From: Pseudomonadota bacterium
Lineage (GTDB): Bacteria > Pseudomonadota > Alphaproteobacteria > Sphingomonadales > Sphingomonadaceae
Direction of reading: 5' to 3'
Assembly (NCBI GenBank): GCA_039815865.1
Contig: JBCBYM010000001.1
Location: forward strand, 3,933 to 67,932
Length of the DNA: 64,000 nucleotides
The position numbers and the translations under genes are program-made. Every line of letters starts with the position of its first letter. Position 1 is the first letter of the stretch. Below, piece after piece: positions 4,254 to 8,210 of the stretch. Below the pieces are notes generated by a model that was not told the DNA's origin, made no database searches, and worked only from the letters and a program-made list of their open reading frames with translations.

Positions 4254-4700
4254 TTACTTGGCTTTCTTCCAGATCTGGGTCTGGCAAAAAAAGCTGATGC
4301 AGCCCTTCACTTCGATCGCGTTCGCGCCCTTGCGCCGCACAACCGAGCGATAGCTTTTACCTGTCTTGGGATCGTAAATTCGCCCGCGCCACAAGGTGTC
4401 TTCCTCGGCAAAGCCGGACAGCACGGCGAGACCTTTCAAACGGCGCTTTTTCTTGGCGGGATCGGGGTTGTAGATATCGCGCTGGTCCGGGCCATCGGGC
4501 GGGGGTACGAGAAACTCAGAGATGCGCCCACCGGTTGAGCTGCCGCAGGGGCCAATCGTGATCACTGCGTCGCGATCCTCTGTAATCCAGCGCCCGGCAA
4601 TCGGGTCTGCGGCGTTGGCGGCCGCGGGAAAAGCGCACACGGCGGCGACCACAAGCGCGGTACGGACCGCAGCGGGCGTTGGGGTCAGTCGGGCAATCAC
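4254..4700 (-). CDS. DUF2147 family exported protein
   Basis: Signal peptide, GRWITED, GRIYDPKTGKSY, KGCISFFCQTQIW. GTG at 4700 follows an AGGAG SD; the ORF track extends the frame to 4790. Confidence 0.8.
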   Translation of the reverse strand: MIARLTPTPAAVRTALVVAAVCAFPAAANAADPIAGRWITEDRDAVITIGPCGSSTGGRISEFLVPPPDGPDQRDIYNPDPAKKKRRLKGLAVLSGFAEEDTLWRGRIYDPKTGKSYRSVVRRKGANAIEVKGCISFFCQTQIWKKAK

Positions 4701-4776
4701 AGCAGGTCTCCTAGCGCGGGGTCTCTCACTCCAGAGCTTCGCATGTCGACAGCGCAAAGTTACACGCGGCGCGCGC

Positions 4777-7344
4777 TTATTCGAAGCCAAAGCCGATGGG
4801 CCAGCGGCGCCCGCACACGCCCAACACCTTGAACAAAGTGCCCATCTGATCGTCGCGCATCAGCCGGTCATATTGGCGCTGGACGACGTCAGACTGGTCC
4901 GGATCGCGGCGCTTGAGAGCTTCCATCCGGGTGTCGATCCCCATCTGGTGAAGCCATTCGCCCTGCATTTGCAGACCCATGACCTCTGCCCCGGCCTCCT
5001 CGGCGACCTGAGCCAACCGCTCAAAATCGACATGCGCCGTCAGATCCGCATCGCCCGGGAAGCGCAAGGGATCGACATGCGAATGGTCCATCAAGGCCTG
5101 CAGAGTTGAGCCTGAGCGCGCTTCAAGCGGGCCGTAATCGATGATGAGCGCCGCGCCGCCCTGCTTTTTGAGACGGGTTGCGATCTCCTCCATCACAGCG
5201 TTAGCGGCCGGACTGGTTTCGATCATCGTGCCTTGCGGCGCGTTCCGCCAGCTGGGCGGAACGAGCTGATCCATTGTCTCAGTCCCGGCGACGAACTGCA
5301 GGTTTTTGCCATCAAGCCCGATCATGCGTTCATGCCAGCCATTGGCCGAGCGAATGAGCTGCTTGATCGGGAGCGCGTCGAAGAATTCGTTGGCCACGAT
5401 CAGAAGCGGGCGATCCTCTGGCAAGGTCGAGAGATCATCGTGATGGACGACCTTGGGAAAGACCTCTTTCTGGATCGCGCGCAAGGCCGGCGAGGTTTCG
5501 ACAAAGTGCATCGTGGGATCGAATTCGTACCGGGTCGCTGTGCGCATCGCGTCGATGGTAAGCGTGCCCCGGCCTGGACCAAGCTCGACATAGTGGATGC
5601 GCTTTGAAGCGCCCATCTTGACCCACAGGTCGGCAAACCACAGCCCGATCAATTCGCCGAACATCTGGCTGACTTCGGGGGCGGTGATGAAGTCGCCCGA
5701 TTCGCCCAATGGATCGCGCGAGGCGTAATAGCGCGCGTTGGATTCGCCCATGAACTGCGAGAGACTGATCGGGCCAGCGCTGGGGATGAGGCGGCGATAG
5801 GCCTCGAGCAGATCAATATCGCCTCCGACCCCCGCCTTGGCGTCTTTCGGATCGGGGCCTTTCGCCGGAGCGCTTTTGGTCTTCGCTGAAGCCTTCTTTG
5901 TGTCGGCATCAGCCTTCTCAGCGTCCGCTTTCGCCTGCTCTTCTGCGGCGAGGCGTTCCTTCTCCTCGGCTTTTGCCTTGGCCTTCTCCTCGGCTTTTGC
6001 CTTGGCCTTCGCTTCAGCCGCTTCCTTAGCCTTGGCTTCAGCTTCCTTAGCCTTGGCTTCGGCTTCGGCTTTGGCTTTTCCGGCGGCGGCCTTCTCTTCC
6101 GCGGCCTTCTTCGCGGCGGCTTTCTTCGCGGCCGCTTCGGCCTGTTGGCGGGCCTTGCGGTCTTCTTCTTCCTGAGCCTTGCGTTCCTCTTCGGCCTTCT
6201 TTTTCGCTTCCTTGGCCGCCTTGGCTTCGGCTCTTGCTTTGGCGGCGGCCTCCTTCTTCGCTTTTTCTTCGGCGTCCGCCTTGGCCTTCGCTTCCGCCTC
6301 AAGGCGCGCTTGCTCTTCCGCCTCCGCCTTGGCCTGCGCCTCCGCTTCAAGGCGTGCTTGCTCTTCCGCCTCCGCCTTGGCCTGCGCCTCCGCTTCAAGG
6401 CGTGCTTGCTCTTCCGCCTCCGCCTTGGCCTGCGCCTCCGCCTCAAGACGCGCTTTCTCTTCGGCCTTGGCCTTGGCTTGTGCTGCGGCAGCCTTGCGCG
6501 CTTCTTCTTCAGCGCGCGCTTCTTCTTCTTCGCGGGCGCGCGCTTCGGCTTCGGCCTTTTCCTTGGCGAGGTGGCGCGCCCTAGCTCGCGCTTCAGCCTC
6601 GGCCTTCTTGAGCGCGTCGGCTTCCGCTTCCGCCTTCGCCTTTGCCTCCTTAGCAAGACGCGCTTCTTCCTCGGCCTCCTTGCGGGCGCGCTCCTCGGCC
6701 TCAAGCTTGGCCCTCTGGGCGGCGCTTGTGCCGCCGCGTGTGCGGCGTCCTCGGGCCGGAGCCGATCCGGCGTCCGATCCGCCAGAGCCAGAGCCAGAAC
6801 CAGAGCCAGCGCCAGCGCCAGAGCCGGTATCGACCGGGGCAATCCATCCCGGCGCGGCGCGGAACACCTCGGTTACGCGGCCATCCGCTTCGATCAAACG
6901 CAGGCTTCCTTTGCGGAAGGAAGACCCGCCACCTGCGCCCGGCCCCTGGCTTGAGCCGGCCCCTGAGCCGGTACCGGTGCCGGTACCGGTGCCCGAGCCA
7001 CCACCGCCGCCTCGGCCTGTGCCCGCGCGCCGCCCCATCGGCGCGCCGCGGCCTGATCCTCGCCCCTTGGAAGAGGCGGGCTTCTTGGCGATGACAGGCG
7101 CGTCTGGATCAAGCGGCTCATCGGCCAGGTCCGCTTCATCCCAGCCCTCCTCCAGAGCGGGATCAATATCGGGAACCTCGATGACGGTTCCGTCCGGTTC
7201 AATCAGCTTAAGCTGTTTGCGCCAGATTTTCTCGTCCGTTAGGCCGTCGCGGTCTGCGCCCCAGCGCCCGTCCCCACGGGCTTCCTCGTCACGGCGTAAA
7301 GCGTGACAATCAACCCAACCAGGATCAGCGGTAGTGTTAGCCAT
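4777..7344 (-). CDS. MidA/NDUFAF7-family SAM-dependent methyltransferase with long Gly/Ser and Ala/Glu/Lys-rich N-terminal extension
   Basis: C-terminal ~345 aa contain [63 protein letters not shown]. Position directly after lgt fits this family. True start uncertain (7344 ATG, 7239 ACG or 7038 ATG). Confidence 0.85.
6271..6462 (-). repeat. four tandem 48-bp repeats encoding [16 protein letters not shown]
   Basis: Near-identical 48-nt units visible in the DNA and as 16-aa repeats in the translation. Confidence 0.9.
6781..6825 (-). repeat. hexanucleotide microsatellite (GCCAGA-like) encoding a GS/GA linker
   Basis: gccaga gccaga gccaga accaga gccagc gccagc gccaga. Confidence 0.8.
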
Positions 7345-8210
7345 TGCCCCATCGACAGTCCGGTTTGCGCCGCGAACTCCGACAATTGGCTGTCGGGTTC
7401 ACGGAAGAATTCATTCACAAAGCGCGCCAGCCCCATGCCGATGGTGAACACGCCGACCATCAGACCCGGGCGATAGCGCGCTTTGGTCTTCCAGAACAAG
7501 AGCATGAGGATGATGAGCAAAGCAAGCCCTTCAAGCCCTGCCTGGTACAATTGGCTGGGATGGCGCACCACTTCTCCGGCGTTGGGGAAGATCATGCCCC
7601 ACGCGACATCGGTCTGGCGTCCCCACAGCTCGCCGTTGTTAAAGTTCGCAAGCCGACCCAGCAGCATGCCCATCGGAACGTTGACCGCGATATAGTCGCA
7701 AACACGAAGGAAGGAGAGCCGCTCGCGCCACGACGTCCAGGCGATTGCGACAAGCACGCCGATCAGCCCGCCGTGAAAGCTCATCCCGCCGTCCCAGACG
7801 CGCAAGAGCTGCCAGGAGACAAATCCTTCGTCCGAAAAGGTGGTGAACGCGCTCGGAATATCAGAAGCGCCGCCGGTGTAGAACGCGGCGTAGCCCAGCC
7901 GTCCGCCCAGGATCACGCCCAGCGTGCAATAAAAGAACAGATCATCCGCGTGCCGCTGCGCAAGCGGAGCGGCCGGTTGCTTGATCATGCGCGAGAGGTG
8001 CCAATAAGCAAACAGCACGCCCAGCAGATAAGCCAGCGAATAAAATCGCAGTACAAACCCACCGGGCAGCGGAATGCCCGGCTTAAGGCCCAGGTCAGAC
8101 CAGTAAATGGGATCGGCGGCCCCAGCCGCCCCAGCGGCTCCGATGGCCGCGTTAGCGAGAGAGGATAGAAAAACACCGATCGGTGCGCTCTCAGCAAGTA
8201 GTGACAGCAC
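7239..8210 (-). CDS. lgt: prolipoprotein diacylglyceryl transferase
   Basis: [63 protein letters not shown]. Confidence 0.95.

Follow-up and report, generated by a model that had tools for sequence, protein, structure and literature searches.

A MidA/NDUFAF7-type methyltransferase with a long N-terminal arm that begins inside lgt and may tether the enzyme

The stretch of DNA analysed here (the window) comprises 64,000 nucleotides from a Pseudomonadota bacterium of the Sphingomonadaceae (GenBank assembly GCA_039815865.1, contig JBCBYM010000001.1, positions 3,933 to 67,932), and our subject is one gene within it, which encodes a methyltransferase of the MidA/NDUFAF7 type directly downstream of lgt, the gene for prolipoprotein diacylglyceryl transferase. 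The protein is 855 residues long and carries an arm of about 510 residues in front of its catalytic domain. Comparisons among relatives lead us to conclude that this arm is translated from an ATG within lgt and is held under purifying selection. The anatomy and evolution of the arm are solid and unusual, and its biological purpose is what we infer from them. The features at the locus, numbered by their position in the window, are as follows.

7239 to 8210, reverse strand: lgt, prolipoprotein diacylglyceryl transferase, the upstream gene (PF01790, E = 1.5e-66).
7342 to 7344, reverse strand: proposed start ATG, formed by the lgt Gln-Trp codons (caA TGg) 35 codons before the lgt stop (comparative evidence).
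7240 to 7344, reverse strand: proposed dual-coding overlap of 105 nt, with methyltransferase residues 1-35 in the -1 frame of the last 35 lgt codons (drop in synonymous differences per site, pS, in lgt).
4777 to 7344, reverse strand: whole open reading frame (ORF) of protein P0001, arm plus MidA/NDUFAF7-type methyltransferase, 855 aa.
7174 to 7215, reverse strand: motif 1, residues 44-57, a predicted beta-hairpin and the core of the conserved N-terminal module (conservation, AlphaFold2).
7075 to 7173, reverse strand: acidic Pro-rich segment, residues 58-90, net charge -9 (composition).
6916 to 7074, reverse strand: Gly/Ser/Arg-rich flexible linker 1, residues 91-143, net charge +6, with three RG dipeptides (composition).
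6829 to 6915, reverse strand: second module, residues 144-172, with motif 2 (residues 147-160, nt 6865-6906) (dN/dS, conservation, AlphaFold2).
6721 to 6828, reverse strand: Gly/Ser-rich linker 2, residues 173-208 (composition).
5860 to 6720, reverse strand: Ala/Glu/Lys/Arg helix of 287 aa, residues 209-495, apparently of the single-alpha-helix (ER/K-like) type (composition, charge pairs, AlphaFold2).
6259 to 6477, reverse strand: tandem repeat of 48 nt (16 aa) within the helix, 4.6 copies, 91% matches (Tandem Repeats Finder).
4777 to 5808, reverse strand: methyltransferase domain, residues 513-855 (Pfam, PDB alignments, S-adenosylmethionine (SAM) motif I).

The catalytic domain can be assigned clearly to the MidA/NDUFAF7 family by its similarity to known members. 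PF02636 (Methyltransf_28) is the sole Pfam domain in the 855-aa protein, scoring 187.9 bits over residues 565-790 (the curated cut-off is 23.3 bits), and two structures, PDB 1ZKD (DUF185; E = 9.3e-76) and PDB 5ZTZ (Dictyostelium MidA; E = 3.9e-54), align to residues ~513-855, in both cases spanning nearly all of that region. SAM motif I, ELGPGRG, occupies residues 587-593, with E587, L588, G589, P590, G591 and R592 invariant among 39 homologues, and the AlphaFold2 model of this part has a normal methyltransferase fold. An earlier reading of this DNA, made from its letters and referred to here as the original prediction, had limited the catalytic domain to the C-terminal ~345 aa and had described family members as usually single-domain enzymes; the Pfam, 1ZKD and 5ZTZ alignments agree with the former and homologues elsewhere in the family with the latter. 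Where single-domain MidA/NDUFAF7 proteins measure about 350-430 aa, the protein in the window reaches 855 aa by virtue of its ~510-aa arm.

From the N to the C terminus, residues 1-57 are followed by the acidic stretch, linker 1, the second module, linker 2, the helix and finally the methyltransferase. Linker 1 (residues 91-143) is 45% Gly and 17% Ser, with an AlphaFold2 confidence (pLDDT) below 50, and linker 2 (residues 173-208) is 36% Gly and 22% Ser and is mostly deleted in P0002, the corresponding protein of the closest relative. The helix (residues 209-495) contains 38% Ala, 24% Glu, 19% Lys and 7% Arg, with a net charge of -1 and 3% LIVMFWY, and opposite-charge i/i+4 pairs number 85 in it, compared with 38 ± 5 in shuffles (z about 9); at 0.15 nm per residue, a fully helical segment of this size would be about 43 nm long. 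AlphaFold2, run on the full protein with 39 homologues (mean pLDDT 61.8), predicts helices at 208-394 and 424-485 (pLDDT 60-89) and two hairpins, one at 46-56 (strands 46-48 and 54-56) and one at 148-160 (strands 148-151 and 157-160), with no confident tertiary contact of the arm in the full-length model. The arm has no transmembrane segment or signal peptide, its 19-residue Kyte-Doolittle maximum being 0.41. In all of this the original prediction has held up well, since it described two copies of a short motif, each followed by a Gly/Ser-rich linker, then a ~290-aa Ala/Glu/Lys helix with 16-aa repeats (287 aa and 4.6 copies as we find them), and neither a transmembrane segment nor a signal peptide. 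The copy number of the 48-nt repeat is given as assembled in a fragmented assembly of 312 contigs, and it cannot alter the frame because 48 nt is 16 codons. The window has ~2 copies more of the 16-aa repeat than the closest relative (a 34-residue alignment gap), which points to a recent slippage-type expansion or possibly to assembly uncertainty.

The long ORF is open in several frames on both strands in its repeat region, and for this reason an open frame alone is no proof that the arm is translated. Evidence for translation comes instead from the pattern of substitution. Relative to the closest relative (locus L050, protein P0002 of 806 aa, NCBI assembly GCA_039027675.1, with the same synteny), the ratio of nonsynonymous to synonymous substitution (dN/dS) is 0.059 in the helix, 0.038 in motif 2 and 0.052 in the catalytic domain (pS about 0.6), and it reaches 0.17 over residues 36-90, where motif 1 lies, and 0.24 over linker 1. 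Across eight species pairs, spacer differences fall mainly at codon position 3 of the methyltransferase frame (172 vs 56 and 36 in one example), and the spacer dN/dS, where computable, is 0.1-0.33, values that are approximate because they derive from low-complexity alignments. Many relatives have no in-frame ATG, GTG or TTG anywhere near the catalytic domain, and its conserved first segment, FRRLIRETGPISL, must therefore be reached from far upstream. At the level of sequence evolution, these comparisons confirm that the arm is translated in the methyltransferase frame and is under purifying selection. The original prediction had named an assembly artefact as one of the outcomes that would undo it; the same layout recurs in complete single-contig genomes and in hundreds of independent assemblies, and the fusion is real. 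ORFs of 397, 375 and 269 aa in other frames or on the opposite strand of this region (5649-6842, reverse strand; 5837-7306, forward strand) are Arg/Pro/Ser-rich and are frame artefacts of GC-rich low-complexity sequence, the substitutions falling at position 3 of the methyltransferase frame.

Where translation begins is best seen by comparing long and short forms of the gene. Our sample comprised 24 genomes of the same genus in addition to the window's own, and 43 loci from the family, of which 20 are long forms and 23 short forms. lgt lies directly upstream in 43/43 of these loci, with the methyltransferase always in the -1 frame of lgt. The short forms typically have a 4-nt stop-start overlap at the lgt stop, ATGA in 15/23 and GTGA in 6/23 (21/23 together). 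ATG or GTG at this position is found in 0/20 long forms, which have instead CTG (9), TTG (1) or one of CTA, GTA and TTA (10). Only one canonical start is common to every long form, an ATG located 31-35 codons upstream, within lgt, and loci L003 and L010 have no other usable start in the whole arm. The lgt Gln codon that supplies this ATG is CAA in 20/20 long forms and in 8/23 short forms (Fisher p = 3e-6), and the rare lgt codons TTG and ATT, which yield D12 and C13 in the methyltransferase frame, are fixed in 20/20 long forms. T-ending and GGG/GGA codons are also found in the long-form overlap, and together these codons encode W10, V/I11, D12 and C13, whereas the short forms vary freely at the matching lgt codons. 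In line with this, comparing lgt of the window with that of L050 gives a pS of 0.032 for the final 35 codons and of 0.2-0.73 elsewhere; the 20 long forms taken together have 0.31 within the overlap and 0.53-0.60 upstream of it, and the 23 short forms, at 0.52 in the corresponding stretch, show no drop. Nonsynonymous differences per site (pN) in lgt remain low in the overlap, and constraint is thus seen in both frames.

Given that both the CAA that creates the ATG and the methyltransferase-frame residues upstream of the lgt stop appear to be under selection, we conclude that positions 7240-7344 are dual-coding and that the protein starts at the ATG inside lgt. The NCBI pipeline picks the same start and layout in P0002, overlapping lgt, and other gene callers pick various downstream starts for long forms; the practical consequence is that, where gene callers disagree, the comparative evidence favours the ATG inside lgt. 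The codon comparisons likewise show that residues 1-35 arose by overprinting of the last transmembrane segment of lgt, an event that, judging from the distribution of the long forms, is placeable phylogenetically within one genus. That lgt adjoins a MidA-type methyltransferase gene across the family (loci L016-L059), with no change in their relative frame, is an observation in its own right, and it suggests a lasting translational coupling of a lipoprotein-maturation enzyme with a presumed complex I assembly factor. We know of no functional link between lgt and a MidA-type methyltransferase.

Long frames of 466-873 aa occur in 21/25 genomes of the genus, the remaining four being short at 358-414 aa, and two further members of the genus are also long. 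Between the lgt stop and the FxTAPE segment there are 42-59 codons in the short forms (n=23) and 119-516 in the long forms (n=20), the window being the longest of the 20. Most of the short forms (20/23) come from other genera, and sampled genomes of other genera of the family have mostly ordinary lengths. Open frames of 533-1631 aa do occur in other genera, and we rejected these as arms: in 20/20 that were read, the frame simply stays open through GC-rich lgt, with M just before the domain and an ordinary start at the lgt stop. Since long forms are found only in the genus and the long frames of other genera are artefactual, the arm is, on the distribution observed, a genus-level innovation of marine bacteria (in records named Erythrobacter and Qipengyuania). 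A length-restricted database search returned 883 long homologues, those with names including Erythrobacter longus, E. sanguineus, E. dokdonensis, Erythrobacter spp. and Qipengyuania sp., and public annotation describes them merely as 'SAM-dependent methyltransferase'. We found no description of the arm in the literature searched.

Within the genus it is the N-terminal end of the arm that is best conserved. The consensus of the N-terminal module has MA(D/N)xTAxxDW(I/V)DC(H/R)xLR ahead of an acidic/Gly stretch that varies; this gives way to W-x-x-x-L-(R/K)-L-I-(E/D)-P, after which DG(S/T)xxE(I/V)P is often found. Among 39 aligned long-form homologues M1, C13, R17 and L47 are invariant, and A2, A6, W10, D12, L16, L45, I48 and P50 are at least 90% conserved. 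The short motif that the original prediction singled out, and for which it proposed an alignment of orthologs, is thus conserved in its L45, L47, I48 and P50; the conserved module is nevertheless bigger than had been envisaged, covering residues 1-57, of which 35 are encoded inside lgt. The two motifs with Gly/Ser linkers are real in the window but limited to a small subclade: copy 2 and the linkers are found only in the window and in P0002, P0003 and P0004, in which motif 2 is conserved, and in most relatives the motif is single and Gly/Ser linkers are absent.

The spacers that follow this module are of two kinds. In 16 loci the spacer is rich in Ala, Glu, Lys and Arg, has 3-7% large hydrophobic residues and shows an excess of i/i+4 opposite charges (z = 4.7-17.5), which is the predicted signature of a salt-bridged single alpha-helix rather than of a coiled coil. 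In three members of the genus, L039 (G014), L041 (G023) and L043 (G015), it is replaced by (EP)n with up to about 80 dipeptides and a net charge of -82 to -115, and the N-terminal module is kept (VWRPRLxLLDPED). Runs of (EP)n form a stiff polyproline-like rod, as in TonB. One genus therefore holds four forms, namely armless enzymes, helical arms of 70-470 residues, EP-rod arms, and arms with one or two motifs. Two unrelated stiff spacer designs combined with a conserved terminal peptide make up the pattern that would be expected if reach or separation matter and the spacer sequence does not.

A few records among the relatives stand apart. Genome G010, with an estimated contamination of 7%, has two methyltransferase copies (G010:C202:458-1489 and G010:C18:32818-34506), one of them a long form; the second copy, on a small contig, is 57% identical and probably comes from a contaminating organism. 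P0125, P0127 and P0128 have the same N-terminal module and some spacer, followed by unrelated sequence; frameshifts or chimeric assembly of contigs over the low-complexity repeat probably account for them. At the other end of the gene, a downstream DUF2147 gene (4254-4790, reverse strand) is listed from a TTG, which gives it a 14-nt overlap with the end of the methyltransferase gene. It is called shorter in the close relative, at 148 aa, with its start after the methyltransferase stop, and the longer version is probably an over-extended ORF.

With regard to substrate, NDUFAF7 dimethylates Arg-85 of NDUFS2 (PMC3829151), the modified bovine peptide being KCDPHIGLLHRGTEK, dimethylated at Arg-85, with the same methylation reported in Nqo4 of Paracoccus denitrificans (PMC3750175), and homologues in alpha-proteobacteria have been inferred in a review to methylate likewise (PMC9006661). 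The genome's own NuoD carries DPHVGLLHRGTEK, which includes the HRGTEK site and matches the bovine methylated peptide; the Arg expected as a substrate of the family sits in the context LLHRGTEK. Family membership makes it most probable that the conserved Arg of NuoD (HRGTEK) is still the target of the catalytic domain. Both linkers of the arm (6916-7074 and 6721-6828, reverse strand) bear RG/RGG-like clusters, for example ARGRRTRGG, which recall the Gly-Arg-rich sequences that arginine methyltransferases of eukaryotes modify. The target presumed in NuoD is Arg-Gly as well, and by analogy the arm might conceivably be methylated by its own enzyme. Several RG-cluster positions are Lys in the closest relative, however, so that charge, and not Arg, may be what is retained.

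Two candidate identities for the hairpin were considered and set aside. Its likeness to the IF3 N-domain is not significant (E = 2.6). A sliding-clamp-binding motif (QL[SD]LF or QLxLxL) was rejected because the Gln is present in the window (QLKLIE) and not in the genus consensus (ALRLIDP, RLRLIEP), and because Ile occupies position 5 and Asp/Glu position 6, where Phe/Leu is required at 5 or 6. A contig search with the whole protein returned only unrelated Ala/Glu/Lys-rich proteins, a pattern that stems from the low-complexity arm.

Taken together, these data lead us to propose that a conserved docking peptide and a stiff spacer tether a MidA/NDUFAF7-type enzyme whose start has moved into lgt. 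As the comparisons show, an ancestral ATGA or GTGA start at the lgt stop was lost in one genus and translation shifted to an ATG 35 codons within lgt, the first 35 residues now being read from the codons of the last transmembrane helix. Downstream of the lgt stop, a short hairpin motif was acquired, and duplicated in the window's subclade, with a long, stiff, non-globular spacer after it. The N-terminal module may act as a docking peptide and the spacer as a rod, about 40 nm in length here, which would keep the catalytic domain at a fixed distance from the place where the module docks. Because of the presumed substrate and the tight coupling with lgt, our best guess is that the docking region is membrane-proximal, at the assembling complex I, at Lgt or at the inner membrane. 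A docking peptide plus spacer predicts that the N-terminal module should stay constant over unrelated spacers, and this is what is seen with the two stiff types. We judge this proposal to be evenly poised between right and wrong. Its relation to the original prediction, which had a docking motif, linkers and a rod tethering the enzyme to a partner or cell site, is that the architecture is real, translated, selected and conserved in the genus, and that motif searches found no specific partner or site.

Several observations weigh against the proposal just set out. No partner was found. The motif occurs in no other protein of its own genome, and what a phmmer search with residues 1-90 recovered from 1.84 billion representative proteins was limited to pieces of this gene and a single chance match to an EF-hand, so that no shared docking code is visible in the genome or in the representative library. 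The N-terminal module is modelled by AlphaFold2 with a pLDDT of only 36-56, no clear Shine-Dalgarno sequence precedes the ATG on reading the sequence, and the spacer dN/dS values are, as noted, approximate. The long forms also constitute one clade, and the codon counts in lgt are not fully independent, a concern that is limited because synonymous sites elsewhere in lgt are near saturation. A more specific version of the tethering proposal holds that a docking module born by overprinting (residues 1-35, including W10, D12, C13, L16 and R17, together with the hairpin) anchors a NuoD arginine methyltransferase at a fixed site close to the membrane, the spacer being a ruler made of interchangeable material; candidate anchors would be Lgt itself, nascent complex I, or the membrane by way of the invariant Cys. 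We hold this version only tentatively and lean towards doubting it. If true, however, it would mean that bacteria possess a naturally 'leashed' assembly-factor enzyme, and that the origin of a functional peptide from an alternative frame of a membrane-protein gene can here be dated.

Other explanations of the arm can be set against the same evidence. It may work through bulk properties, such as nucleoid exclusion, solubility (as an entropic bristle) or oligomeric state, with the N-terminal residues serving initiation or folding; this would suit a spacer whose composition is kept rather than its sequence, whose length varies widely, and for which no partner or shared motif was found, and it would suit an N-terminal module of low AlphaFold2 confidence. 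The hairpin motif, however, lies outside the overlap and is strongly conserved, and its duplication, with a dN/dS of 0.038 for copy 2, would be difficult to account for if it bound nothing specific, which makes an effect of bulk alone unlikely in our view. A binding role could also be turned inwards, with the motif copied from the N-terminal segment of the enzyme itself (RLIEPDG vs RLIRETG) and docking in cis or in trans on the catalytic core, so that the enzyme would inhibit itself or associate with itself into chains. An N-terminal extension arises easily by internal duplication, and the profile-profile similarity is reached by 93 of 2000 column shuffles (p about 0.047), but this similarity is marginal and covers 7 columns, and AlphaFold2 does not confidently place the motif on the core; we find self-docking hard to credit.

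The arm could, alternatively, be a largely neutral by-product, in which loss of the start made the upstream ATG obligatory, slippage-prone GC-rich repeats expanded, and selection did no more than maintain an open frame and a harmless peptide. Tandem-repeat copy number does differ between close relatives, length variation is extreme and the repeat region is open in other frames, all of which would be expected of such a by-product. Neutrality sits poorly, though, with a spacer dN/dS of 0.06-0.33, well under the neutral value, with the i/i+4 charge pattern kept in 16 loci, with the conserved residues of the motif and module, and with convergence on two stiff spacer designs, and we think it distinctly improbable. 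We see still less reason to place the start elsewhere, whether by reinitiation at or near the lgt stop (CTG or ACG) or by a late -1 frameshift that would yield a membrane-anchored Lgt-arm-methyltransferase fusion. The exact -1 relation to lgt in 43/43 loci, the CTG that overlaps the stop in 9/20 long forms (TTG in 1/20) and the want of a clear ribosome-binding site before the ATG might encourage such ideas, but the stop is overlapped by CTA, GTA or TTA in 10/20 long forms, and selection acts on the CAA (ATG) and on methyltransferase-frame residues upstream of the stop. An ACG at the lgt stop (TAACG, 7230-7250, reverse strand) was rejected as a start since the codon after the stop is not conserved in the 20 long forms (AAG, AAT, ACC, ACG, GGA, ATC, GAG and others), as was the GTG of 'GVWRS', which is present only in some species; for a frameshift, no slippery heptamer (X XXY YYZ) was seen in the last 35 codons of lgt on reading them. 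A start elsewhere is accordingly very improbable. Least credible of all, to the point of being nearly negligible, is that the fusion is an artefact of assembly or annotation and that only a methyltransferase of about 350 aa is made. The assembly is fragmented (312 contigs), the arm is repetitive and gene callers disagree on the start, but complete single-contig genomes, 883 long database proteins and 21/25 genomes of the genus share the architecture, no start codon lies near the domain, and the arm frame is under purifying selection.

The role of MidA/NDUFAF7 homologues in bacteria has barely been studied, and the arm variants described here amount to a built-in experiment of evolution. They bear on whether, and where, the cell organises complex I Arg methylation in space and on how the length and stiffness of a spacer tune a tethered enzyme, in a group, Erythrobacter, whose strains are cultivable and non-pathogenic. 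They also bear on the origin and upkeep of a 105-nt dual-coding overlap with an essential membrane-protein gene.

Compared with known systems, the protein is like other MidA/NDUFAF7 enzymes in its catalytic domain, its ELGPGRG motif, the presumed substrate site HRGTEK in the NuoD of its genome and the position of its gene downstream of lgt; known members and the 23 short forms are single-domain, whereas the protein in the window has an arm of ~510 aa and a start inside lgt. The overlap shares with overprinted bacterial overlaps a constraint in two frames, with suppressed synonymous variation and fixed rare codons in the older gene, lgt. The usual stop-start overlaps of bacteria measure 1-4 nt, as in the short forms, and the long-form overlap 93-105 nt; it makes the N-terminus of an existing enzyme and not a new gene.

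The material of the arm also has parallels. Its long Ala/Glu/Lys-rich helix resembles domain II of TolA in composition, and the (EP)n spacers of three relatives resemble the (EP)n/(KP)n rod of TonB, both of which serve as long stiff spanners. The protein in the window differs in having no transmembrane anchor, signal peptide or TolA/TonB C-terminal domain and is predicted to be cytoplasmic. No match to TolA was found in Pfam or NCBIfam, and both the transmembrane anchor and domain III that mark TolA are missing; the original prediction had set the arm apart from TolA with its membrane anchor, and the hydropathy maximum of 0.41 and the lack of a TolA domain match are in keeping with this. The likeness to TolA and TonB is thus one of material, by analogy, and does not imply family membership. 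With the ER/K single alpha-helices of myosin VI/X and caldesmon, the helix shares a high content of Glu plus Lys/Arg, dense i/i+4 opposite charges and almost no hydrophobic seam, and it is predicted to be continuous; its Ala content (38%) far exceeds that of classical ER/K helices from eukaryotes, and it belongs to a bacterial cytoplasmic enzyme. Closest in logic, by analogy, may be FtsZ. FtsZ has a variable linker and a conserved C-terminal peptide, and the same arrangement of globular core, spacer that varies in length and composition and is poorly conserved in sequence, and short conserved terminal peptide appears here. There is no homology between the two; in the window the peptide is N-terminal, and the predicted spacer is a stiff helix, or an EP rod in relatives, in place of the disordered chain of FtsZ.

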